A stretch of 51,450 bases of DNA from Patescibacteria group bacterium (GCA_040384765.1 JAZKIQ010000003.1:1-51450), one strand, 5' to 3'; shown: positions 9,918 to 37,426, counted from the stretch's first letter. A program made the numbers and translations. The notes: generated from the sequence alone by a model not told the origin.

Positions 9918-10086
9918 CGCCTCTCCTTGTTCATCTCCCCCAGATCTATACCCTCCGCAGGATACCTGAGGCGAGCTCCCTTGGAAAGCTCTGCTGGTCG
10001 ATTGGTGCCGCGTGAGTGAATCGAACACTCTTCAGACGCTCTTCAGGCGTCTGCTTTACCGTTAAGCTAACGCGGCTTAGGCATCT

Positions 10087-10152: not shown

Positions 10153-10446
10153 CTACTGGCCCTGCTGCCCGATATATTTCTCCGCCTGGGCGCGGAACTG
10201 CTCAAATAGTTTTTGAGAAAACTCCTCACTTGTTTTGCCAGGGTTCGCCGCGGCCTCCTTGATCGGCTCAATAAAGGGCTGGATATAATAGTAGGCGCCC
10301 ACGGCAGAGCCGATGATGATTGTGTAGTAGATAAGGCGCCCAACACGAGCCCAGCGGGCTCCACTGACAAGCTTCTGGAGCATCCTGTTGTTCTCCTTTG
10401 TCGCAGCAAGAAGCTCGTCTATTTTTCTGTCTTGAAGATCAGCCAT
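10153..10446 (-). CDS. Single-TM hypothetical protein
   Basis: ENNRMLQKL..ARW..LIYYTIIIG..GAYYYIQP; TACACT 6 nt upstream of ATG. Confidence 0.75.
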   Translation of the reverse strand: MADLQDRKIDELLAATKENNRMLQKLVSGARWARVGRLIYYTIIIGSAVGAYYYIQPFIEPIKEAAANPGKTSEEFSQKLFEQFRAQAEKYIGQQGQ

Positions 10447-10460
10447 ATATATAGTGTATC

Positions 10461-10494
10461 AAAAAAATAGCCGCCCGAGATGTGCCCGGGCGGC
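10461..10494 (-). terminator. Terminator closing the ribozyme-containing operon
   Basis: GCCGCCCG...CGGGCGGC stem followed by TATTTTTTT on the - strand. Confidence 0.75.
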
Positions 10495-10513
10495 AACGAA
10501 CGATCGAAATCTG

Positions 10514-10729
10514 TTATTTCGAAAACTTCGAGCTGATCCAGTACGCGAGCCCCATAAAGATCGTGATCTTGATCCCATGCAGCTCAACGAACTTTCCAGC
10601 ATCGGTGCTGACCGCTGTGTACAGTGGCCCTGCGTAGCTCGGGAAAAACATATGCCCGAGCACGAGGAGGGCAATCACTGTCCAGAGCAGTGCGCTCTTG
10701 AACAGCTTTTCCTCGAAAAATTCCTTCAT
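10514..10729 (-). CDS. Small two-TM orphan protein (71 aa)
   Basis: AAAGGAGG SD before MKEFFEEK; two hydrophobic segments. Confidence 0.7.
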   Translation of the reverse strand: MKEFFEEKLFKSALLWTVIALLVLGHMFFPSYAGPLYTAVSTDAGKFVELHGIKITIFMGLAYWISSKFSK

Positions 10730-10940
10730 AGGACCTCCTTTCCCGAGCAGGTACTCCTGCTTAGGGCTTTCATATTCCAACCCTGCAATGAGACCATCTC
10801 AAGAGAGAGATCAAGACGGTCTCGTTGCAGGATTTGAATTTTCCAAGCACCAGCCTTCGATCAAAAATCAAAAGCTTGTAATTGGAGAGCTGCCGAATCT
10901 CCTTTCGAATTTTCACGCAGCTCTTCGAGGAAACGTCCTC

Positions 10941-11267
10941 TTACGGAAGAGGAAGCATTCCTCCTGTACCAGGCGGGGGGACCGGTGTACCAGGCGGCAG
11001 GATCGGTGCACCCGGCGAGATAACCGGAGCGTGTGCCGGCATCGGACAGAGGATCGCAGCTGACCCACCCACGTCGCACGCCGTCGCGTTCGCGCTTGCT
11101 CCTGCGACCGTCGCAGGGAACCAGCAGCGGATGACCGTTCGCTCGGCCGCGCTAACGCACAGTCCGCAAGAGCGATCGTGCTTCGCCTTCTTCACGCGCT
11201 TGCGAGCGGCGAAGAGGGGGCTGGTCGACACGAGGATGAGGACGAGGCACCAGACGAGCATGCGCAT
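10941..11267 (-). CDS. Secreted Cys-containing orphan protein with Pro-rich tail
   Basis: AAAGGAG SD; signal-peptide-like N-terminus; PG..PPG repeats. Confidence 0.65.
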   Translation of the reverse strand: MRMLVWCLVLILVSTSPLFAARKRVKKAKHDRSCGLCVSAAERTVIRCWFPATVAGASANATACDVGGSAAILCPMPAHAPVISPGAPILPPGTPVPPPGTGGMLPLP

Positions 11268-11423
11268 GGCATACTCCTTTCCCGGAATGACCGGATTAAT
11301 TTTTTATGAACATCGGATTCAGTCCGAGCCGAGCACCATCTTTCAATGATGCTTGGCAAAAGACTGCGGAGGATGGATGTTTTTACACATCCCCGTCCGC
11401 AAGCGATCCACTTCGAGGTGGGA

Positions 11424-11708
11424 TCAACTACCTCTCTTCTTGGGCCCGCCTCCCCCGCCACCTCCACCGAACCCAAGTCCCTTGAAGAGGAACTTGAACG
11501 CGTAGGCAACGATGAGGCAGCCGACCACGAACCAGACGATCTCCCAAACGAGGGGACCGAGCCGGAGCCAGAACTGGTTCCAGAGGTGAATGCCGCCACG
11601 CGAGAGACGCGTGGTCACCACATTCACTCCCTTCTCGAACCCGAGTGGGTCGAGCACCATCCATGCACCGAGCGAGAGCACCGCGATCAGGATCAAGCGA
11701 TTGCGCAT
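11424..11708 (-). CDS. Two-TM orphan protein with poly-Gly/basic tail
   Basis: GAAGGAGG SD; ends GGGGGGGGPKKRGS. Confidence 0.7.
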   Translation of the reverse strand: MRNRLILIAVLSLGAWMVLDPLGFEKGVNVVTTRLSRGGIHLWNQFWLRLGPLVWEIVWFVVGCLIVAYAFKFLFKGLGFGGGGGGGGPKKRGS

Positions 11709-11710
11709 GA

Positions 11711-12043
11711 TTACTCCTCCTTCGACTCCTCAGCGTTGTGCTTCTGGAGATTGTTGTCGACCTCATGGAGACCCTTGATGATGGCATCGATCTGATCGGC
11801 CACCCTGTTAGTGTCCAGAGCCACCATGGAATCCCTCCGAAGGAGAGCTTCCATGGTCACTTCGAGCTGCTCGATGGTCATGAACTGCGGCGGGCAGAGT
11901 GAGGTCCGATAGCAGTACTGGGCGCTATTGTACTTGTTGAGCATCCTCTCGAGCGCGGTGGCAGATTCTGCCTCCACGATCGCGAAAGACTTCTCAAGGC
12001 ACCCGTGGACCAAGTCCATCTGATGCACCATGAACCTCGGCAT
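11711..12043 (-). CDS. Orphan protein, probable paralogue of 12064-12285 with coiled-coil extension
   Basis: AAGGAGG SD before MPRFMVHQ. Confidence 0.7.
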   Translation of the reverse strand: MPRFMVHQMDLVHGCLEKSFAIVEAESATALERMLNKYNSAQYCYRTSLCPPQFMTIEQLEVTMEALLRRDSMVALDTNRVADQIDAIIKGLHEVDNNLQKHNAEESKEE

Positions 12044-12063
12044 AGGTTCCTCCTTGTCGAAAT

Positions 12064-12285
12064 TTATGCACGGTCCTTCTGATCTCGATCTCGCACCAAC
12101 GACTCGAGCTCTGAAAGAGAAACGCATTCCGTAGGCATTGGAATAGCCTCGTAGTCGAATTCCCTTCGGCAGTAGCTCCGCAGAAGATTCATCACATGAC
12201 TCGCCGAAACGGCCTCAATCACCGCGATGATATTCTGCTTCCTACTACCCCAGTTCTGAGTCTGAACAACGAGAAACTGAGCCAT
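12064..12285 (-). CDS. Orphan protein (73 aa)
   Basis: AAAGGAGG SD before MAQFLVVQ. Confidence 0.7.
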   Translation of the reverse strand: MAQFLVVQTQNWGSRKQNIIAVIEAVSASHVMNLLRSYCRREFDYEAIPMPTECVSLSELESLVRDRDQKDRA

Positions 12286-12310
12286 GCTGGCCTCCTTTCA
12301 GGTGCTTCTT

Positions 12311-12423
12311 GTTGAACCCCAAACTGAATTTTGAACTGCACTACCACTGTCGGTCATACAATACTGCGCGGTGCTAAAAAGCATCGTACGCGCGGACTTT
12401 CAAAATTCAGTTCGGGGTTCAAC
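12311..12423 (-). ncRNA. Repeated structured RNA motif, copy A (family unknown)
   Basis: 25-bp closing stem with core GAACTGAATTTTGAA/TTCAAAATTCAGTT; inner GCGCG-TACGA-hairpin-C-CGCGC; homologous to 14980-15071. Confidence 0.6.
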
Positions 12424-12526
12424 TATTCAAAGAACTCTAGTGAAAAGCGAACGTCTGTTCCCTTTTCTCATAAAGCTGGCGAGAGGTATGAAACTCTCGC
12501 CGTGCGCGGGCTATCCGGCGCACTAC

Positions 12527-13039
12527 CTACTCGGTGCGGATAAGCACCGACGGCCCCAGGATCTGCACCCGCTCTCTGCGGCGCTTCTCCCGGCGCTCCT
12601 TCTCACCGATCAGCACGTTGAGCTGCCGGGCCCGAGCCTTCAAGGCCAAGTTCTGCCAGAAGAGGATCAGGTAGATCTTCTTCTGCACGGCGTTGGTCCG
12701 CTCGATGAACTCGAGCGCCGGCGCGATCTCCGCGTCGGCCGGCGCGATCTCCGCGTCGGCCCGCACCCTCTTCACGAGCGGCACGAACCGATTGCTGACC
12801 CGCTCCGCGAACTTCTCGAAGCGCGGCTGCTCCCGCTCCATGATCCTCGCCAGGCGTCCTTCGAGACGCTTGCTCGAGCTCGCCCGGAGGCGGTCGAGGT
12901 CGAGGCCATGAAAGAGGCGCTCGTAGCACAGGAGCGTCACCGTCTCCTCCGCGACCACCGTCTCGATGGGGGTGTACCCATGAGCCGACGATGCGAGGGC
13001 GACCGAGATGAACAGCACTGCGAACATGAGCTTCTTCAC
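12527..13039 (-). CDS. Secreted helical orphan protein
   Basis: AAGGAG SD before GTG; MKKLMFAVLFISVALASSAHG signal peptide. Confidence 0.72.
   Translation of the reverse strand: MKKLMFAVLFISVALASSAHGYTPIETVVAEETVTLLCYERLFHGLDLDRLRASSSKRLEGRLARIMEREQPRFEKFAERVSNRFVPLVKRVRADAEIAPADAEIAPALEFIERTNAVQKKIYLILFWQNLALKARARQLNVLIGEKERREKRRRERVQILGPSVLIRTE
12717..12758. repeat. Exact in-frame 21-bp tandem duplication
   Basis: GCCGGCGCGATCTCCGCGTCG x2, encoding ADAEIAP twice. Confidence 0.9.
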
Positions 13040-13281
13040 GAGAACGCTCCTTCCCGATGCGCGAAGCATCGGATCATTCCACCCTTCCTGCAGATTTTGC
13101 ACGGAGGAGTTTGGAAGCGTGGCCTCAATTTTTGAGATAACGATTCCAAACTCCTCCTTCAAAGAACATCTTTCAGGACCTACGATCCTTTCAGATCACA
13201 AATCCATTCAAGACGGACAGGTGGGCATTTTTCATGCGAAACACCTGTCCGTTACCTCTACTTCTTGCCTACCTGCTTTTC

Positions 13282-13452
13282 CTAGTTGCGACGCGTGCTC
13301 CGGGACGAGCTATCGGATCCCTTCCAGATGGAATCCATGTATCGCGACCCAATGCGCTGATGCTCCAGCTGCTTGCCGGGGCAATCCTCGATCGGATCGG
13401 AATCGTCATGGTTCTGGAAATGCACAACGCCGCAGATCTCGCACACGTTCAT
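13282..13452 (-). CDS. Small orphan protein with CxxC...H...C (56 aa)
   Basis: MNVCEICGVVH...EDCPG; GAGG upstream. Confidence 0.5.
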   Translation of the reverse strand: MNVCEICGVVHFQNHDDSDPIEDCPGKQLEHQRIGSRYMDSIWKGSDSSSRSTRRN

Positions 13453-13708
13453 TTCTCGTTTCCTCACAGTTACAGTTACGGTTAGTAGGTATGCAACAGT
13501 AGGCAACTCAGGCGACTATTCTTATTTTATTGAGAACTATTCCGGTGCTTAGAGCTCCAGAGCTGGTTCGAAACTATTGTTTTCGAATTCAGCATACGAA
13601 GTTCAAGCTCTCCACCTACAGAACGCGAAACTCGTGCTTCGCATTCTGATGAGTGGGACGCATTAGTTTTACAACGCTCGTCCCGACGTTGCTCCTTTCA
13701 GAGAGTTA

Positions 13709-14092
13709 CTATTCCTTCCACTCCGGTTCCGACCAGTCGGTCACGAATCCGATTGCGGTTTCCTTCTTCTTGAGGAGAGCATCGCCCTCTTCGAGAGAAA
13801 GCGGAATCCGCTTCTCGTATTCCCGACCCTCTAGGCCGACGTAATGTCCGCCTTCGAGGAGTTCGTACCAGTCCCAAGACCCCTGCTTCAAGCGTTGGAT
13901 CCGAAACCGTACCGGCATCTGGTCAGGGCTGACCTCGTGCCATTCGGCGCACACAATGCTCTCCACGTAGACAGAGGCGGCAGGTCGAGTCATGACCCGC
14001 TCCTCTGCTTCGAGAGCAAGCGCGTCGAGCGTCCACACATGTGCCAGCACCAGAAGGGTCAATGCAACGACGATCGTGATGTTTCTCATCAT
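13709..14092 (-). CDS. Signal-peptide/TM orphan protein
   Basis: MMRNITIVVALTLLVLAH hydrophobic start; GAAGGT upstream. Confidence 0.65.
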   Translation of the reverse strand: MMRNITIVVALTLLVLAHVWTLDALALEAEERVMTRPAASVYVESIVCAEWHEVSPDQMPVRFRIQRLKQGSWDWYELLEGGHYVGLEGREYEKRIPLSLEEGDALLKKKETAIGFVTDWSEPEWKE

Positions 14093-14114
14093 ATTCGTGT
14101 CACTTACCTTCGGG

Positions 14115-14282
14115 CTAGAGCATGTCAGACATGGTCTCGGATGCCACCGCGCGGCGCTTCGAGTCGATTTCGCGGACGAGATCCTTGCAGATGACCTTGC
14201 GGCCAACCGGACCGTCCTTGAATTCGACATCGAGGCGAGCGAGGAGGTTCTGGGCGTAGCGGTACGTGCGATTGGTGTTCAT
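14115..14282 (-). CDS. Small orphan protein (55 aa, not in ORF track)
   Basis: AAGGAG-N6-ATG; MNTNRTYRYAQNLLARLDVEFKDGPVGRKVICKDLVREIDSKRRAVASETMSDML*. Confidence 0.65.
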   Translation of the reverse strand: MNTNRTYRYAQNLLARLDVEFKDGPVGRKVICKDLVREIDSKRRAVASETMSDML

Positions 14283-14424
14283 GTCGTGCTCCTTGTTTGG
14301 GAAAAGAGCGCGGCAACTTCATGGTACTTCTGCTGCGTCGTGTGCTGCATACTTCTGGCGCAGGTAAGCGCCAACTACTACGGCAACTGCAACTTCTACT
14401 ACCACTACAAAACAACTACTCGCA

Positions 14425-14520
14425 CTAACCCTGGTGCACCACGGCGGCGAAAGCCGTCATGAGCACCGTGGCCACCACCCAGAAGGGCGGCAGCAACTCC
14501 AGCGCTACGATCTTACTCAC
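14425..14520 (-). CDS. Small hydrophobic peptide (~31 aa), start uncertain
   Basis: GAAGGAGGTGA then SKIVALELLPPFWVVATVLMTAFAAVVHQG*; directly 3' of hammerhead 2. Confidence 0.4.
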   Translation of the reverse strand: MSKIVALELLPPFWVVATVLMTAFAAVVHQG

Positions 14521-14538
14521 CTCCTTCAATTTGTTCAA

Positions 14539-14611
14539 GAGCAACTGTTTCGTCCTTTCGGACTCATCAGGCGGAACGTCGTATTGACGTAAATTCCGCG
14601 ACAGGTGGCTC
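14539..14611 (-). ncRNA. Type III hammerhead ribozyme (HHR2)
   Basis: CUGUC^GCGGAA-(UUUA bulge, CGUC/GACG)-UUCCGC-CUGAUGA-GUCC-GAAA-GGAC-GAAA-CAG; complete core, GUC triplet, cleavage predicted between 14600 and 14599. Confidence 0.93.
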
Positions 14612-14639
14612 GCGAGAACCCGAGGGTTCCCGCCAGCCG

Positions 14640-14771
14640 CTACTCTTCCATGAGTTCTTTAATACGATGGTCCCGTCGCTCTCGGGGCGTCATGTTCGCG
14701 AGCCTCCAGAGGCTCACCGACATTTTCACCATTCCGATCGCGAGCGACCCGACCGCGACTACAGCCAGCAT
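14640..14771 (-). CDS. Small TM peptide (43 aa) or frameshifted 3' part of 14759-14941
   Basis: GGAG-N6-ATG; MLAVVAVGSLAIGMVKMSVSLWRLANMTPRERRDHRIKELMEE*. Confidence 0.45.
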   Translation of the reverse strand: MLAVVAVGSLAIGMVKMSVSLWRLANMTPRERRDHRIKELMEE

Positions 14772-14941
14772 GCCATTCTCCGAGCAACCGTCGGGTTGCC
14801 CCAGGTGGTCATGCGCCGCTCACTGCTCTTTTCCCGCTCGACACGCACCAGGTGCGCTTCGAGGGAGATGCGCGCGAGCATCTGTCCACCGAGCCACCCA
14901 AACGCGATCAGTACCGGCGAGAAGATCAGCACGATTGTCAT
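14759..14941 (-). CDS. Small TM orphan protein (60 aa)
   Basis: AAAGGAG-N6-ATG; MTIVLIFSPVLIAFGWLGG hydrophobic start. Confidence 0.6.
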   Translation of the reverse strand: MTIVLIFSPVLIAFGWLGGQMLARISLEAHLVRVEREKSSERRMTTWGNPTVARRMACWL

Positions 14942-14979
14942 CTCAATCTCCTTTGTCAGAAAAACTACAGCTCCCGATG

Positions 14980-15071
14980 CGGAGTCCCGAACTGAATCTT
15001 GAAACCTAACGGCTGCGCAGTGGAAAAATTTCCATCGATATGCGCTATTCAAAACTCAGTTCGAGACTCCG
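14980..15071 (-). ncRNA. Repeated structured RNA motif, copy B (family unknown)
   Basis: 24-bp closing stem with core GAACTGAGTTTTGAA/TTCAAGATTCAGTTC; inner GCGCA-TATCGA-hairpin-C-TGCGC. Confidence 0.6.
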
Positions 15072-15085
15072 TTTTTAATGTTCTT

Positions 15086-15136
15086 CTGCTTTCGCTCTTT
15101 CGAGCTCATCAGTCGGGATACACATCCCGAGAGCAG
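15086..15136 (-). ncRNA. Type III hammerhead ribozyme (HHR1)
   Basis: CUGCUC^UCGGGA-UGUGUA-UCCCGA-CUGAUGA-GCUC-GAAA-GAGC-GAAA-GCAG; all three stems pair; cleavage predicted between 15131 and 15130. Confidence 0.93.
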
Positions 15137-15193
15137 TCGGTATCTATTGGAGACACCGCGAGACTTTATAGAGTTTCTCGATCTCTTTTAGTG

Positions 15194-15766
15194 CTAGTAG
15201 TTAGCGAGCAGCGCGAACGGGGAGGTCCGGTCTTCCTCGATGTGGACATCGCGAACGATGTCCACGAGCGTGAAGTTCCGGTTCTCGACCACCCTGGACG
15301 GGAGCCCCATGAAGGAGCTCTCCCTCCCGGTGGCCGTGTCCCACTCGAGCGTGACTTCGAGGGTTTCGGCATCGACAGTTGCCTGGAACCAGCGACCAGT
15401 GGTCGCAGCACCATCCCAGCGGAGGATGGAAACCGTTCCAGTGGTAAATACATGTGCATTGATCCACCAGCTGCTTGCCGATGAGAAGCCGAGCATCGCT
15501 TGCTCAGCCAACTTCGTGAGTGCCGTCGGCAAGTCCAGCTTCCGGTAGATCGCTTCCCAAAGGGCTTCGTCGTACCGCCCCTGGATCCCCACGCGAAGGA
15601 ACTGGTCCAAACCGAGGCGTACCGCTTCGGCCCCGACACCAATCGCCCTTCCATGGGTAGCGACCCCCGTCTCGATCTCTTCTCCGTCACTGATGACGTC
15701 GAAGAAAGAAGTCGGGAGGCTTGCGAAGCGGACTGCGGACTGGGCACCATTCTGGATTGCGTTCAT
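15194..15766 (-). CDS. Orphan protein (190 aa), first gene of the ribozyme operon
   Basis: GGAG-N7-ATG before MNAIQNG; long open frame. Confidence 0.7.
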   Translation of the reverse strand: MNAIQNGAQSAVRFASLPTSFFDVISDGEEIETGVATHGRAIGVGAEAVRLGLDQFLRVGIQGRYDEALWEAIYRKLDLPTALTKLAEQAMLGFSSASSWWINAHVFTTGTVSILRWDGAATTGRWFQATVDAETLEVTLEWDTATGRESSFMGLPSRVVENRNFTLVDIVRDVHIEEDRTSPFALLANY

Positions 15767-15774
15767 GATCATTC

Positions 15775-16492
15775 TCCGTGGTCGCTCTGCGACCGACAAT
15801 CGAAAAAAGTTTCAAACAATCCTCTATAGCTATGGCGAGGCGAACTACAAACTAGCACTTGGAAATGTACTACCCGGATACCATGTCCGAGAGAAATCTA
15901 GGCAGAAGCGCGAGGATCCAAATTTTAAATAATTGATCTCGGGTCCGCCCAGGTTTCTCTCCTCAATCACACCCGCCACAAGCTTCGCAAGTTGGCGGAT
16001 TATTTTTCGTATACGAAAAATAAAAAGCGATTGAGATCTACCTTTAGAAAAAGATATGCCTCAATCGCTCTTCGATTCGTTGTCCCGAATCAAGGCGAAG
16101 GTTTGGCTCTCTCTTTCCAAAACTTCATATTTAGTTTTCAAATTTCCTACCCCCACTCGAGTAAACGAACTATTTCATTTACTCGATAAGGGGAGGGGGT
16201 CATGAGCGGCGCGCGGCGTTGTGAAAGTCGAATGCGCGCCGAATCACTCCCCCTCGTCGATCGAACAAAGTTGTCGATCCGTCAACCATACTCAGAATTC
16301 AAAGGAACCTCCTCTGTAAAATTCCCTGTACAATACAGTATCCGCGAATCGGCATTTGGTACGGGGGCTTCCCTTCTGGACCCTTAAAGTTTCCTTCAAA
16401 GGTGGAGCGAGCCGTCCTACGCCGCGCGATGTGGGGAGCTGGTCACTAGGTGGGCATCGGTCGCCCATCCCTCAACCTGACCTTATCCCTAC
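15775..16492 (-). ncRNA. ~720-nt hairpin-tiled non-coding leader (putative large structured RNA)
   Basis: No convincing ORF; more than ten consecutive stem-loops; starts just after a strong promoter. Confidence 0.5.
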
Positions 16493-16498
16493 ATGAGT

Positions 16499-16528
16499 AT
16501 AATAGCATACTATTGACTACTTTGTCAA
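16499..16528 (-). promoter_or_regulatory. Sigma70 promoter of the ribozyme operon
   Basis: TTGACA(16523-16528)-N18-TATTAT(16499-16504) with an extended TG. Confidence 0.6.
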
Positions 16529-16587: not shown

Positions 16588-16595
16588 CATATTTG

Positions 16596-16667
16596 TGCCC
16601 CTGGGAGGAATTGAACCACCATCTACCCCTTAGGACGGGGCTGTTCTATCCGTTGAACTACAAGGGC
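16596..16667 (-). tRNA. tRNA-Arg(CCT)
   Basis: GCCCTTGTAGTTCAACGGATAGAACA-GCCCC-GTCCTAA-GGGGT...GGTTCAATTCC...GGGGCA. Confidence 0.9.
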
Positions 16668-16674
16668 ATTTTCT

Positions 16675-16962
16675 TTACAACGTAGCTAGAATATCACGGT
16701 TATCTTCCTTGGCCACTTTATTCCTGCGCTCGATTGTGCACTTCGCACAGCGATACAAGATATCGTGCTCGCCGCTTGCCATCTCCTGCCCTATCGGCTC
16801 CATGAGCCCACCGCACGTTTCTGCTCTGTCACCAGGAAACACATCTACATGCTTTGACCAAAGGCACTCTGGGCAATGGTTTGTGTACCCATTCCCTTTT
16901 ACTTCGAGCCCGCATTGCTCACATATAAAATCTTCGATTTTCCGCTTGAATTGGATAGACAT
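16675..16962 (-). CDS. RNHCP domain protein
   Basis: FICEQCG...TNHCPECLWSKHVD..PGDRA..CGGLM. Confidence 0.9.
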   Translation of the reverse strand: MSIQFKRKIEDFICEQCGLEVKGNGYTNHCPECLWSKHVDVFPGDRAETCGGLMEPIGQEMASGEHDILYRCAKCTIERRNKVAKEDNRDILATL

Positions 16963-16977
16963 GGTGGATACGCCAAA

Positions 16978-17427
16978 TTAATTTAAAAAGTTTTTAAGGA
17001 GAAACGGCGAAAGATACGGTTTTAACATTTCTCGCTCCTTCTCGGAAAGTTTTTTAAAACCGGCAATCCTTCCTTTGCATGCACGGGCGGCACATAGGCA
17101 ATCAAAAATATCTTCACCATCCCAATCGCTCGTTAGGTAGTTGTAGGTAATCTCTTCATCGATACTAATATTTCGCATCGCCCTGAGCTCGAGCGCACTC
17201 CATCCTATATAGGCCGTAGGATCACAGGAGTGGTTGAGAAAATTTTCTGGAAGGTCAGGGTTTGTACTCAACTGATGCAGATCGAGGTCGACCCGCAGGG
17301 TTTTGTTCGTCGGCTTCGATACAAAACTCTGCTCAAAGGTAAAGAGTAACTCCTTTGGCTGGAACTGCTTAAGCGCAAACAACCCATATCCAGCGCCTTT
17401 TCTTCGCACTTCAATTCTTCCAGACAT
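16978..17427 (-). CDS. SET-domain protein-lysine methyltransferase with post-SET
   Basis: GYGLFA, FLNHSCDP, EEITYNY, CLCAARACKG. Confidence 0.9.
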   Translation of the reverse strand: MSGRIEVRRKGAGYGLFALKQFQPKELLFTFEQSFVSKPTNKTLRVDLDLHQLSTNPDLPENFLNHSCDPTAYIGWSALELRAMRNISIDEEITYNYLTSDWDGEDIFDCLCAARACKGRIAGFKKLSEKEREMLKPYLSPFLLKNFLN

Positions 17428-17433
17428 GGGAGC

Positions 17434-17511
17434 TTACGCAGTTTTTACACTACCAAGAAGCGCAAAGACCAGAAGTGTAATAGCTACAATCCAATAAAAT
17501 TCTCGTTGCAT
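17434..17511 (-). CDS. Possible 25-aa hydrophobic peptide
   Basis: MQREFYWIVAITLLVFALLGSVKTA*; ATG overlaps the tRNA CCA end. Confidence 0.25.
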   Translation of the reverse strand: MQREFYWIVAITLLVFALLGSVKTA

Positions 17512-24749: not shown

Positions 24750-24777
24750 AAAGGCCGCCCGTGAGGGCGGCCTTTTC
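24750..24777. terminator. Terminator after RNase P RNA
   Basis: AAAAGGCCGCCC-GTGA-GGGCGGCCTTTT. Confidence 0.8.
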
Positions 24778-24781
24778 ATGT

Positions 24782-25111
24782 ACTGTATCTGTAAGCCGAA
24801 TTCTGTATCCACCGAAATGGACGATAGGCATTTATCTGGGCCTCACATTACTGTGAAGCTCGAGCGGCACTCCCTCCGAAGAGGGCACGGCCTTGCACTG
24901 AAGTAAGGATTTAGCCGTTTCACCCTCGTGTTACCACGAGGACGGTCCACGGGGGACCTCCTAGTCTTTCGACATCGGACGTTTCTGCTCGCACCTCTTG
25001 GATTACTCCAGACGGGTGTTACCCGCTACTCTCGCCACATCAATGAATTGTTGCAGCTCAGTGTTCGGACTTTCCTCTCCTGCTCTCGCAGGAGCACCTA
25101 CCCGACACAGC
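24782..25111 (-). ncRNA. rnpB: RNase P RNA
   Basis: GAGGAAAGTCC near the 5' end, ACAGAATTCGGCTTA near the 3' end, P1 GCTGTGTC/GATACAGT; TTGACT-N16-TATAAT promoter at 25118-25145. Confidence 0.95.
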
Positions 25112-25191
25112 AATACAATTATACCATAACTAACCGATAAGTCAAAAAGAAAAAACCGCCAGATAGCGGTTTTTTCTTTTCTAGCCTCTTT

Positions 25192-35739: not shown

Positions 35740-36819
35740 TCAATTAAAATCCAGTAACTCCCTGAAAAACTCCTTCGACTTCCAAAACAAATACTGCATG
35801 GTATAGAAGATTTTCTTCAAAAAACTACTTTCCATTTCTTGAGAAAGTCTTCTGTAAGCTGCCAGGCGAGTCGGAGTAACTAAGTCATTTTTGTAATCAT
35901 TCCAAAACTGATCAGTGTTGCCGTAGAACTCTACGTCCGAATTGTTTATGGAAAGACTATTAACCATAACTGTCAAACTTTCAGATAGTTTCTTATCGTT
36001 AATTTGATGATATGGCTTATAAGTTTTTCCAAAAACAATTGCTTTACGAGGCGAAATCGGGAGAATAAATGAATAGCCATCATCTCTGTTAAAGTCCCAT
36101 AGACTAGTAACTTCTAGTAGATCGTCGTCTCTACCGATAATACACACTGGGGAATCAGATAAAATGAAATAATGATTTTTTGGTGCAACTATTGTGTGAA
36201 GATTTTTTTGGTAAATCTCCTCAACGATGAACTCAGCAACTTGAATGGCTATAAAAAGCTCCTGCCCTCTTGTTTCTTCTAGACTGGACTTCCTAAGAGT
36301 TATGTCATTATCTATTTGCTTTCTGGTAATTTTGTATTTGTTCTTTACGATTATTTCTTGAATTTTTTCTCTGTTGCCGAGATCTTCTATGCTTATTAAA
36401 GCATTCAGCAGAAGGTATGCGATGCATTTATTGATCAACTTCCTGAATTTTCTTGTTCTAGTTAACTGATGAGCAACTAGAGTCGCCAAAATGCTTTCCT
36501 CTTCATATTTAAGGCTTAATATCCCATCTTGCCCTAAAACTTTTTTAACTACAGCAGGAGCGTGCTTCGCTTTTTCTATTTCTTTATAAACCTCATCGGA
36601 GACTTTTGCTGGCTCTTTTGTTTCTGCATGTCTTCCTAGGTAAAAATCAACTTCGTTTCCAGCATGCTTTGCAATGCTTCCTTTTTTGCTATCGAAAGCA
36701 GGTCTTTTATAAATGTACACAAGACCGGACTCCTGACCTGTCTGCTCTATAGCAAAATTTCTAAGTAGAAATTGTGGAACAAAATGATCTTTCTTATTTT
36801 TTACTCCATTATTCGCCAC
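35740..36819 (-). CDS. DUF4238 domain protein (AT-rich)
   Basis: DHFVPQFLLRNF, HQLTRT, FILSDSPV, LPISPR. Confidence 0.8.
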   Translation of the reverse strand: MANNGVKNKKDHFVPQFLLRNFAIEQTGQESGLVYIYKRPAFDSKKGSIAKHAGNEVDFYLGRHAETKEPAKVSDEVYKEIEKAKHAPAVVKKVLGQDGILSLKYEEESILATLVAHQLTRTRKFRKLINKCIAYLLLNALISIEDLGNREKIQEIIVKNKYKITRKQIDNDITLRKSSLEETRGQELFIAIQVAEFIVEEIYQKNLHTIVAPKNHYFILSDSPVCIIGRDDDLLEVTSLWDFNRDDGYSFILPISPRKAIVFGKTYKPYHQINDKKLSESLTVMVNSLSINNSDVEFYGNTDQFWNDYKNDLVTPTRLAAYRRLSQEMESSFLKKIFYTMQYLFWKSKEFFRELLDFN

Positions 36820-36820
36820 A

Positions 36821-37276
36821 TTATAGTGATTTTAGAAATTTTTCTTTAACAAAAACATAGAAAAATGTCCTGCTAATGAGCCAAAATATTACACTAACAA
36901 TAATAAACGATAGCACGTAAAAACCAGCCTTCTCAGATACTGAATATCTTGGTTTAGAAATTTGTGAATATTCTAGATTTTCTGGCACCGCTCCGTAGTC
37001 AAGAGGATTTACTTTTTTCCCGTTAATCACTGGGATTTCATCGGGATTTTGGCAACGCTTAGACAAATCATTTTCATTACTAAACCTATAGAAGTCTAGT
37101 CCGGGGTAAGGATTTTCAAATTCTTTGCCGTTGTCACATTTTACGAAAGAAACTTTTTTACTAGTAACGCTATAAGTTATCCAGAAACCAAATCCTTGGG
37201 CAAGGAAAAATGCGAGTACAAAAAATACTTTTAACGCTCGGTACCAGGCTTTTTGGTTTAAGGTTGATCTGTCCAT
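36821..37276 (-). CDS. Two-TM hypothetical protein (AT-rich)
   Basis: WYRALKV..TM, Cys pair, C-terminal TM. Confidence 0.7.
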   Translation of the reverse strand: MDRSTLNQKAWYRALKVFFVLAFFLAQGFGFWITYSVTSKKVSFVKCDNGKEFENPYPGLDFYRFSNENDLSKRCQNPDEIPVINGKKVNPLDYGAVPENLEYSQISKPRYSVSEKAGFYVLSFIIVSVIFWLISRTFFYVFVKEKFLKSL

Positions 37277-37336: not shown

Positions 37337-37426
37337 TGGCGGAGAGAAAGGGATTTGAACCCTTGAGGGGATTGCTCCCCAACATCCTTTCCAGGGATGC
37401 GCTTTAGACCGCTCAGCCATCTCTCC
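37337..37426 (-). tRNA. tRNA-Ser(GGA)
   Basis: GGAGAGATGGCTGAGCGG...CATCC-CTGGAAA-GGATG, long variable arm, CCA end. Confidence 0.96.

Follow-up and report, generated by a model that had tools for sequence, protein, structure and literature searches.

Our analysis suggests that positions 10461-16528 on the minus strand of the window, the whole 51,450-nucleotide stretch of DNA that was analysed, probably form one transcription unit on a lineage-specific islet, and that its polycistronic mRNA would cleave itself to yield three RNAs, the stability of which would be shaped by hairpins. The unit is flanked by tRNA-Arg(CCT), which it adjoins as the initial annotation described, and by tRNA-Phe, in a genome of 0.82 Mb. 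It contains a promoter, a structured leader, 13 small ORFs, two hammerheads, two copies of a long-hairpin motif and a terminator (Table 1). The strong minus-strand promoter and the clear terminator previously assigned to the locus were both recovered. Sites matching at least 11 of 12 promoter consensus positions are rare: there are 36 in the 822,710-bp genome, 20 of which have the TG extension, and shuffled sequence gives ~0.95 promoter-like sites per 100 kb. A simple scan found no other such site inside the unit, including none upstream of g1. The earlier assignment of the host to Parcubacteria is probably wrong, its relatives being labelled Saccharibacteria.

Table 1. Features of the 10461-16528 unit, in the order of the proposed transcript.
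Feature	Coordinates	Strand	Evidence or remark
Sigma-70-type promoter, TTGACA / 18 nt / TG-TATTAT	16499..16528	-	11/12 consensus plus TG extension
Highly structured leader RNA, ~490 nt	16005..16495	-	MFE -197.7 kcal/mol, z -7.47
Terminator-like hairpin then U run, within leader	16012..16072	-	inverted repeat I5, arms 16023-16045 / 16050-16072
g1, 192 aa	15194..15772	-	best coding frame; homologue at 54% identity
Hammerhead HH2, type III, predicted cut after C15131	15084..15138	-	RF00008 match 15086-15136, 32.0 bits, E 6.9e-4
Long-hairpin motif, copy A: 24-bp outer stem, inner hairpin	14973..15079	-	model R1 110.1 bits; MFE -51.3, z -9.57
g2, 60 aa, hydrophobic N-terminus, AAGGAG SD	14759..14941	-	coding-frame analysis
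g3, 43 aa, hydrophobic, overlaps g2 end	14640..14771	-	coding-frame analysis
G+C-rich hairpin directly before HH1 cut; would cap 3' end of upstream product	14607..14638	-	fold of spacer s2
Hammerhead HH1, type III, extended stem I, predicted cut after C14600	14542..14607	-	RF00008, 45.8 bits, E 8.4e-8
g4, up to 39 aa, one hydrophobic helix	14425..14544	-	coding-frame analysis
g5, 55 aa, AAGGAG SD	14115..14282	-	coding-frame analysis
g6, 127 aa, signal-peptide-like N-terminus	13709..14092	-	homologues 98%, 66%, 31% (last in G002:C36)
g7, 56 aa, contains Cys	13282..13452	-	weakest ORF: annotated frame not best
Hairpin, 26-nt arms, upstream of g8	13103..13157	-	inverted repeat I2, 85% complementary; spacer s6 z -6.0
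g8, 170 aa, signal-peptide-like N-terminus	12527..13039	-	homologue 89% identity; GC3 0.92
Long-hairpin motif, copy B	12305..12430	-	R1 94 bits; MFE -57.5, z -7.97; inverted repeat I1, 96% complementary
g9, 73 aa, paralogue of g10	12064..12285	-	BLASTP vs g10, E 4e-5
g10, 110 aa, paralogue of g9	11711..12043	-	BLASTP, coding-frame analysis
g11, 94 aa, two hydrophobic segments, Gly-rich tail	11424..11708	-	coding-frame analysis
g12, 108 aa, signal-peptide-like N-terminus, Pro-rich tail	10941..11267	-	coding-frame analysis
g13, 71 aa, one hydrophobic segment	10514..10729	-	coding-frame analysis
Intrinsic terminator	10461..10494	-	10494..10470: 10-bp stem, 9 G-C pairs, T run

Both hammerheads have the entire CUGAUGA...GAAA core, the A15.1-U16.1 pair and C17 (at 15131 in HH2 and 14600 in HH1), with no mispair adjoining the core. 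Their three helices, with stem III open, give the type III topology, and RF00008 aligns over positions 1-54 of 54. Cleavage is predicted at 15131/15130 in HH2 and at 14600/14599 in HH1, which upholds the initial claim of two complete type III hammerheads with cleavage sites at 15130 and 14599. The scores of both are lower than the RF00008 gathering score of 48.5 bits, that of HH2 being 33.9 bits in the whole-genome search against 32.0 in 7 kb, and the two are therefore absent from a gathering-mode scan. Since this cut-off is exceeded in only one of 151 genomes of the order, the Rfam model fits the short variants of the lineage poorly; at E <= 1e-3 the same search finds matches in 31 of the 151 genomes and in none of 14 control genomes. 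A lineage-specific model (R2), whose training set excluded HH1, gives HH1 53 bits (E 7.5e-14), and the scan of the genome with it found no third hammerhead in the locus or elsewhere. Across the hammerhead family of the order (25 sequences), 98.4% of cells are paired, against 36-48% in slid controls, and 13 of 15 pairs show compensatory changes on both sides, a result equalled by none of 500 shuffles. An orthologue of HH2 in another genus (G002:C58) has compensatory changes in stems I and II, and there too the ribozyme and the long hairpin are kept together as a module.

The long-hairpin motif is an imperfect, intergenic palindrome of ~65-130 nt. Besides the two copies in the unit, already seen as a recurring RNA motif in the initial annotation, a third lies on another contig of the genome, and G002 has the motif in seven places. 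The outer stem has 24 paired positions in all three copies of the genome. In 11 of 11 copies the sense strand folds better than the antisense, and in 10 of these it has 4-8 G-U pairs, against 0-2 on the antisense. Such a strand-specific fold points to selection on RNA rather than on DNA ends. In all six copies examined, a co-oriented start codon follows 22-63 nt downstream. Continuous stems of at least ~20 bp, together with the RNase III domain encoded in the genome (130.6 bits), are what RNase III-type cleavage calls for, and cleavage of these hairpins is predicted. RNase J and RNase Y are also encoded. The description of the spacers as tiled with hairpins is equally borne out: seven of eight intergenic spacers fold with z between -3.1 and -9.0, and in every spacer, the eighth included, the sense-strand fold is the better one.

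The 13 ORFs are co-oriented, encode 39-192 aa, and in 12 cases the annotated frame scores best by codon usage. A hydrophobic 19-mer is found in eight of them and, from a reading of the upstream sequences, a strong AAGGAG-type SD precedes eight. This agrees with the proposal of about 13 small genes, about half of them membrane or secreted and most with AAGGAG/GGAGG SDs, save that the annotated frame of g7 is not the best-scoring one and that g4 has an uncertain start codon, because the listed TTG falls within stem III of HH1. The ORFs were regarded as orphans, and searches against Pfam, PHROGs and PADLOC gave no match; the best PHROG hit was a marginal one, between g12 and a family whose function is unknown (E 9.9e-4). 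Homologues were found elsewhere for g1, g6 and g8, and g1, with 18 relatives at E <= 1e-3, belongs by alignment to a small uncharacterised family that shares the conserved motif EWDTATG..ES.

These elements can be assembled into a mechanism. Transcription would start at ~16490, some 7-9 nt past the -10 hexamer, and enter the 490-nt leader, whose terminator-like hairpin may gate read-through into the 13 small genes, eight of which would encode products with membrane or secreted segments. HH2 would then cut after C15131 and HH1 after C14600, giving three RNAs: the leader with g1 (~1.36 kb), g2-g3 (531 nt) and g4-g13 (~4.1 kb). Hammerhead cleavage leaves 5'-OH and 2',3'-cyclic-phosphate ends. The upstream products would thus end in a 3' hairpin and a 2',3'-cyclic phosphate, and the downstream ones would carry a 5'-OH and open with the ribozyme body in its folded form, to which the 24-bp hairpin is added after HH2. 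Such ends, with probable RNase III cleavage at the 24-26-bp hairpins, may confer segment-specific stability and translation rates. The opposite outcome is conceivable: in Bacillus, the 5'-OH products of the glmS ribozyme are degraded by RNase J1 and, since RNase J is present in this genome, cleavage could destabilise the downstream RNAs rather than stabilise them. Self-cutting at the two hammerheads into separately stable RNAs, as originally suggested, is the reading that the sequence best supports.

The leader had been described as ~720 nt of non-coding RNA. It is indeed structured (none of 100 shuffles matches the native MFE) and has no convincing ORF, but its length is ~490 nt and it has its own terminator-like hairpin and U run, of 15+7 bp in the fold, which a simple terminator scan did not list. 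As this good hairpin ends the leader, transcription from the strong promoter may mostly terminate before reaching g1, and expression of the operon might then depend on read-through or on a promoter that went unrecognised. It is possible, if in our judgement somewhat improbable, that promoter and leader terminator delimit an independent structured RNA gene of ~480 nt, with the downstream genes transcribed separately or by regulated read-through of a riboswitch or attenuator type. The strong fold, the closing hairpin and the lack of a convincing ORF fit such a gene. So does the finding that 16022-16302 differs by one letter in ~280 in contigs from two other runs, other parts of the locus differing by ~7-11%, but this comparison is built on low-depth pieces from a single study. 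The leader also matches no Rfam family at E <= 10 besides terminator-like noise, no homologue of it was found elsewhere in the genome or among 40 relatives, and the simple promoter scan offers no second site upstream of g1 from which the genes might be separately transcribed.

The distance from tRNA-Arg to the homologue of the gene at 10153-10446 is 885 bp in a same-family genome, against 6,148 bp here. GC3 averages 0.566 +/- 0.065 over the genome, where just 4.2% of 385 long ORFs reach 0.69, whereas 12 of the 13 ORFs of the unit lie at 0.69-0.92. Absence from the same tRNA-Arg site in the relative and atypical GC3 therefore make this stretch an accessory islet of ~6.1 kb. Might it be a decayed prophage or integrated mobile element, such as a phage early region, that lost its mobility genes and kept the hammerhead-punctuated operon? 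The position directly 3' of a tRNA gene, the absence there in the relative and the atypical GC3 would all suit this origin. Published bacterial hammerhead clusters are mostly prophage-borne (PMC3088659, PMC6155905), and the clusters of relatives have higher G+C than their hosts, e.g. ~47% against 30% in L044. Yet no ORF matches a PHROG of known function or a known prophage module, and no duplicate of the tRNA 3' end is present to act as an att repeat. The sole tyrosine recombinase of the genome lies on another contig, in line with the reported lack of an integrase in the window, and in five relatives with clusters the single integrase is 9-32 kb away or on another contig. Two members of the g1 family also gave no match by tblastn against 50,697 phage records. 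We regard a prophage origin as a tentative option that is rather doubtful. It concerns the provenance of the islet and is compatible with the self-processing mechanism.

Retrozymes and viroid-like circular RNAs carry type III hammerheads, and the initial annotation had raised the possibility that the locus is a DNA-resident source of such RNAs. The two ribozymes, of the same type and strand, do bound a short segment (15130-14600, 531 nt), and double cleavage would leave it with the 5'-OH and 2',3'-cyclic-phosphate ends from which a circle could be made. However, this segment carries g2 and g3 with SD, coding-frame and hydrophobic signals, the ribozymes do not lie in long direct repeats and no direct repeat includes HH1 and HH2, and neither reverse transcriptase nor RdRp is present. 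RtcB (PF01139) is not matched in the 99.83%-complete genome, although the same profile matches in 10 of 14 control genomes. For bacterial clusters, spliced or circular products were sought and not detected in the work of Perreault et al. (PMC3088659). Excision and circularisation of the segment is thus very improbable, and this portion of the initial proposal lacks support. Equally improbable is an operon processed by host RNases only, in which HH1 and HH2 match by chance or are relics without activity, since the sub-threshold Rfam scores that would favour it are outweighed by the E-values in 7 kb, the intact cores free of adjoining mispairs, the conservation of HH2 in another genus, the family-wide covariation and the empty control genomes.

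The locus belongs to a kind of hammerhead cluster described in 2011, in which the ribozymes gather around one gene or a short block of genes and flank small non-conserved ORFs (Perreault et al. 2011, PMC3088659; such gene clusters are reviewed by de la Pena et al. 2017, PMC6155905). In the 2011 account, tandem hammerheads of polycistronic RNAs cleave in vitro (PMC3088659). As in those prophage clusters, at least two same-strand hammerheads lie in a polycistronic unit, HH2 and HH1 flanking g2-g3 and parting g1 from g4-g13; the cargo consists of small non-conserved ORFs of unknown function; and the proposed role is the same, the division of one long RNA into mRNAs that each span a gene or an operon. 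In contrast to them, this locus has no integrase, phage gene or att repeat and so falls outside a prophage context, both ribozymes are type III, one is paired with a family-specific 24-bp hairpin, the host is of a reduced-genome group labelled Saccharibacteria, and a TrmB-type regulator often adjoins the clusters of relatives. What is new here is the lineage, the lack of prophage hallmarks and the conserved hammerhead-plus-hairpin module.

Other systems share single traits with the locus. The early mRNA of phage T7 has RNase III processing hairpins between genes, and here too long intercistronic hairpins stand just upstream of cistrons in a genome encoding RNase III. Unlike in T7, conservation is confined to a near-perfect 24-bp duplex, the interior being variable, two boundaries would be cut by ribozymes rather than by protein, and cleavage of the hairpins is predicted. 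The Correia elements of Neisseria are small palindromes repeated between genes, whose transcripts are cut as hairpins. The long-hairpin motif resembles them in its size, imperfect palindromy and several intergenic copies per genome, but differs in the sense orientation before start codons of all six copies examined and in its G-U-dependent, strand-specific fold.

Similar clusters occur across the order, where the ~55-nt ribozyme is 83-95% identical between different families. The adjoining TrmB-type regulator is frequently divergent, and in two genomes the cluster lies directly upstream of a Ro60-type RNA-binding protein. A more speculative view, which we consider unlikely as it stands, is that short type III hammerheads are the native punctuation of accessory gene cassettes throughout this order of epibiont-type bacteria with reduced genomes and not a phage leftover, the intervening genes being exchanged and often under TrmB control, with ribozyme and RNase III-type hairpin coupled in the family of this locus. 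If so, genes for small surface proteins would be exchanged, and their expression controlled, in units of hammerhead-bounded cassettes. The role of bacterial hammerheads is still termed an open question in the review (PMC6155905), and a full-text literature search found no paper linking hammerheads with the Saccharibacteria-labelled lineage. Since its promoter and terminator are defined, its ribozymes number exactly two and hairpins stand at both new ends, the unit offers a compact test case for ribozyme cuts that may set differential mRNA stability. More broadly, clusters that are common in a reduced-genome lineage (31/151 genomes), without recognisable phage genes, widen the setting of bacterial hammerheads beyond prophages.

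Our analysis confirmed the overall observation of the initial annotation, a locus of small genes punctuated by hammerhead ribozymes, which lies between tRNA-Phe and tRNA-Arg(CCT) in a genome of 822,710 bp (12 contigs). Rfam in gathering mode reported no hammerhead in the window, and the scores of the two candidates in E-value mode are both lower than the cut-off of 48.5 bits. Yet both are complete type III hammerheads, as first described: read directly, both show the core (CUGAUGA, GAAA), the A15.1-U16.1 pair, a C17, and three helices without core-adjacent mispairs. The cut sites predicted earlier (15131/15130 and 14600/14599) agree with this reading. In an alignment of 25 compact hammerhead copies, from which HH1 was left out, the textbook structure pairs 98.4% of the cells (36-48% with slid partners), and 13 of 15 pairs show compensatory change, a covariation matched by none of 500 shuffles. 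The model built from these copies gave the held-out HH1 53 bits (E 7.5e-14 in 8 kb). Judged from their sequences, HH1 and HH2 are genuine hammerheads; they belong to a short variant specific to the lineage, to which the Rfam model gives too low a score. The further hammerheads for which a genome-wide scan had been suggested did not materialize: the genome holds only these two, and the 25-copy model found no third in locus or genome, the next best match having 11.6 bits.

Features of the locus and its surroundings (copies A, B and C are those of the long-hairpin motif; G000 is the genome under study, C4 one of its contigs, and L051 the fetched locus around copy C)
Feature	Position	Strand	Evidence or remark
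tRNA-Phe	10003-10076	-	ARAGORN and Rfam
Terminator, strong; 10-bp stem with 9 G-C pairs, then T run	10494..10470	-	simple scan, one
Copy B	12305-12430	-	25 nt ahead of g9
HH1 (Hammerhead_3)	14542-14607	-	Rfam E-value mode, 45.8 bits, E 8.4e-8
Copy A	14973-15079	-	directly 3' of HH2; 41 nt ahead of g2
HH2 (Hammerhead_3)	15086-15136	-	Rfam E-value mode, 32.0 bits, E 6.9e-4
Promoter, near-consensus; TTGACA / 18 nt / TG / TATTAT, 11/12	16528..16499	-	simple scan, one
tRNA-Arg(CCT)	16595-16667	-	ARAGORN and Rfam
Copy C	G000:C4:32081-32184 (L051:5082-5185)		22 nt ahead of orphan ORF

An order-wide search at E <= 1e-3 gave hammerhead matches in 31 of 151 genomes, our own counted, often as same-strand clusters (eight matches in G123, six in G109, four in G008, and three each in G011 and G028, all relatives), and in none of 14 control genomes. 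Only one of the 151 has an Rfam hammerhead above the cut-off. Across a phylum-wide sample, hammerheads were present in 13 of 151 genomes, again counting our own, and mostly in single copy. Nine clusters fetched from relatives share at the DNA level only the ribozymes of ~55 nt (83-95% identity), and the genes between the ribozymes are not common to them.

In six of the nine fetched clusters (L042, L044, L047, L048, L049 and L050, from G123, G008, G011, G028, G050 and G079), the distance between the first hammerhead and a gene for a TrmB-family regulator (PF01978) is 0.5-1.1 kb, and in four cases this gene is divergent. These genomes have just 1-6 TrmB-family genes apiece, and the sole one of G079 adjoins its hammerhead pair. 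The locus in the window has no TrmB gene; the three of its genome are all on contig C4. A Ro60-type protein (TROVE and Ro60 vWA domains) is encoded in clusters from two genomes of different families, its ORF starting 52 nt (L046:3836-5518, minus strand) and 111 nt (L047:5402-7246, plus strand) downstream of a hammerhead. In L047, this gene is followed by ~1.1 kb without a good ORF, which could house Ro60 partner RNAs, and then by two more hammerheads. A small protein family with a Cys-x2-Cys..Thr-Cys motif and no Pfam match recurs within three clusters (L045:5608-5919, L046:2097-2753 and L048:2579-2944). The G+C content is ~46-49% in one cluster (L044:6000-9500) and 52-58% in another (L047:5500-8000), against ~30% and ~40% in the respective host DNA.

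The strong minus-strand promoter and the clear terminator proposed for the locus were both recovered by a simple scan. Promoter-like sites of at least 11/12 number 36 genome-wide, 20 of them with the TG extension; shuffled sequences gave ~0.95 per 100 kb. One 11/12 site with TG extension, at 25145, lies immediately upstream of the RNase P RNA gene (bacterial class A, 24776-25113, 114.9 bits). The promoter of the locus is therefore credible in the host organism. The leader (16495-16005; MFE -197.7 kcal/mol, z -7.47) is structured, and its 3' end, a terminator-like hairpin of 15+7 bp followed by a U run, had been missed in the initial annotation; this closing hairpin suggests that the leader may constitute a separate RNA gene or an element controlling read-through. 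Seven of eight intergenic spacers fold with z-scores of -3.1 to -9.0, and the sense strand outdoes the antisense in every intergenic spacer folded.

DNA contigs of three sequencing runs from one study cover the locus to differing extents; the low-depth contigs of two of them (X2 and X3) were compared with the window over the parts that they cover, outside which lie, for example, g5 and most of g1. One letter in ~280 differs over part of the leader (16022-16302), and the pieces over ORFs are ~7-11% divergent. Within the locus, two similar 23-nt stretches (13140-13162 and 14507-14529, 74% identity), one in the 5' arm of the hairpin preceding g8 and the other ahead of g4, each hold an SD-like GAAGGAGG and then, after 8-9 nt, an in-frame ATC; they may represent unusual starts or SDs that are sequestered.

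Of the RNA motif reported in two copies, both copies stand (A and B), and the whole genome adds a third (C). We defined it from two inverted repeats, I1 and I4, together with a self-match that lies on a different contig. Each copy is a 24-bp outer stem with an inner hairpin; the MFEs of A, B and C are -51.3, -57.5 and -42.8 kcal/mol (z -9.6, -8.0 and -6.6), and six outer-stem pairs are altered on both sides between copies. Copy C lies between orphan ORFs of 163 and 138 aa, neither with a Pfam or PHROG match, and no hammerhead was found near it. The covariance model of the motif, R1, matches in four of 151 genomes of the order: our own, G002 of the same family (seven places), G134 (one place) and one marginally. 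One-arm exact-pattern matches in a metagenome (L076) and a Clostridia-labelled locus (L078) lack an R1 match and were set aside as chance or partial. The sense strand folds better than the antisense in all 11 motif copies (e.g., -41.2 vs -14.3 kcal/mol), and it has 4-8 G-U pairs in 10 of them, the antisense 0-2. This strand bias and these G-U pairs argue that the hairpin is selected as RNA.

Contig C58 of G002 has a hammerhead and then the motif, arranged as in the window; compared with the window's, its hammerhead has compensatory changes in stems I and II, with loop 1 and core identical. Contig C36 of the same genome has an operon in which three motif copies each precede an ORF by 34-63 nt; a g6 homologue (31% identity) is encoded there as well. 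Records labelled Candidatus Saccharibacteria hold the same hammerhead-plus-hairpin module. We excluded that the motif is a new self-cleaving ribozyme: in one G002 copy nothing is left beyond a 24-bp hairpin closed by a triloop, so that conservation is confined to the duplex. A 24-bp duplex is a classic RNase III substrate, and RNase III, RNase J and RNase Y are all encoded in the genome. The motif is a putative RNase III-type hairpin.

The locus is an accessory islet, since it is absent in a genome of the same family, G003, and has atypical GC3. Synteny at tRNA-Arg(CCT) had been proposed as a check: both flanks of the window are collinear in G003, where 885 bp separate the tRNA from the homologue of the 10153-10446 gene, against 6,148 bp in the window. 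These 885 bp contain two unrelated ORFs. GC3 is 0.69-0.92 in 12 of the 13 islet ORFs, the genome mean being 0.566 +/- 0.065, and a value of 0.69 or higher occurs in just 4.2% of 385 long ORFs. The islet was probably acquired. A search for att-like repeats of the tRNA-Arg 3' end with up to three mismatches found none, and the window has no integrase, as already noted, the only tyrosine recombinase of the genome being on another contig.

Between tRNA-Gly and tRNA-Arg (16675-17427), the window has RNHCP-domain and SET-domain genes that are missing there in G003; in one X2 contig, 35 other letters stand in place of 16963-17459 (the SET gene). At 36001-37000, adjoining tRNA-Ser(GGA) (37337-37426), the G+C content falls to 0.349, vs ~0.52 around.

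The islet encodes 13 co-oriented ORFs of 39-192 aa (g1, nearest the promoter, to g13), matching the earlier count of about 13. With 288 long ORFs from this genome as training set, a codon-usage log-likelihood ranked the annotated frame first in all but g7. A strong AAGGAG-type SD precedes eight of the 13 (upstream sequences read by eye), and eight have a hydrophobic 19-residue window, in line with the earlier view that most have SDs and about half are membrane or secreted proteins. Two of them, g9 and g10, are paralogues (E 4e-5). The true start of g4 is uncertain, because its listed TTG falls within stem III of HH1. The initial annotation found none of the ORFs recognisable and named a match to a known prophage module as grounds for refutation. 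There was no such match, and searches were blank or marginal: just two Pfam matches, both sub-threshold, for 12 ORFs (g4 left out); a best E of 9.9e-4 in PHROGs for all 13, to a family without known function; and none in PADLOC for 10 (g2, g3 and g4 left out).

Three ORFs have homologues: g1 and g8 a single one each (54% and 89% identity), and g6 at 98% and 66%. The relatives of g1 (54%), g8 (89%) and g6 (98%) are each encoded on a 4,914-bp contig; this is presumably one and the same contig, in which case the related islet is mosaic. In a search of 1.84 billion proteins, the g1 family numbered 18 representatives (E <= 1e-3); it has a conserved EWDTATG..ES motif and no Pfam domain in the 10 members scanned. 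Genome and metagenome contig collections gave no confirmed relative of the g1 locus. The AlphaFold2 pLDDT of g1 rose from 32.9 with 2 sequences to 80.7 with 19. Foldseek found nothing for the latter model at E <= 1e-3 in PDB and BFVD, and we give g1 no fold or function because its best VIA-align Z (7.4) is inside the range of models without true match. The best feature score in a protein atlas, 0.88, is under the 0.9 bar and provides a lead only.

Perreault et al. (PMC3088659) report in vitro cleavage of three tandem hammerhead arrangements, and that spliced or circular products of bacterial clusters were sought and not detected. A 2017 review (PMC6155905) describes hammerhead-flanked ORFs as encoding small non-conserved proteins without known function and the biological role of bacterial hammerheads as still open. 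We therefore place the locus with the hammerhead-flanked gene clusters of Perreault et al., from which it differs by its host lineage, the absence of phage hallmarks, the coupling to a family-specific, putative RNase III-type hairpin, and a structured and terminated leader. None of the papers found by full-text search ties hammerheads, by title and abstract, to the Candidate Phyla Radiation, Patescibacteria or Saccharibacteria, although survey supplements may include the lineage.

The suggestion that the locus is a source of retrozyme- or viroid-like RNAs is not supported, because the hammerhead-flanked segment is coding and RtcB is absent from this 99.83%-complete genome. The best reading is instead a predicted self-processing of the transcript at its hammerheads. 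A G+C-rich hairpin stops one base short of the stem III strand of HH1, and a smaller hairpin precedes HH2, so that each upstream RNA left by cleavage would carry a hairpin at its 3' end.
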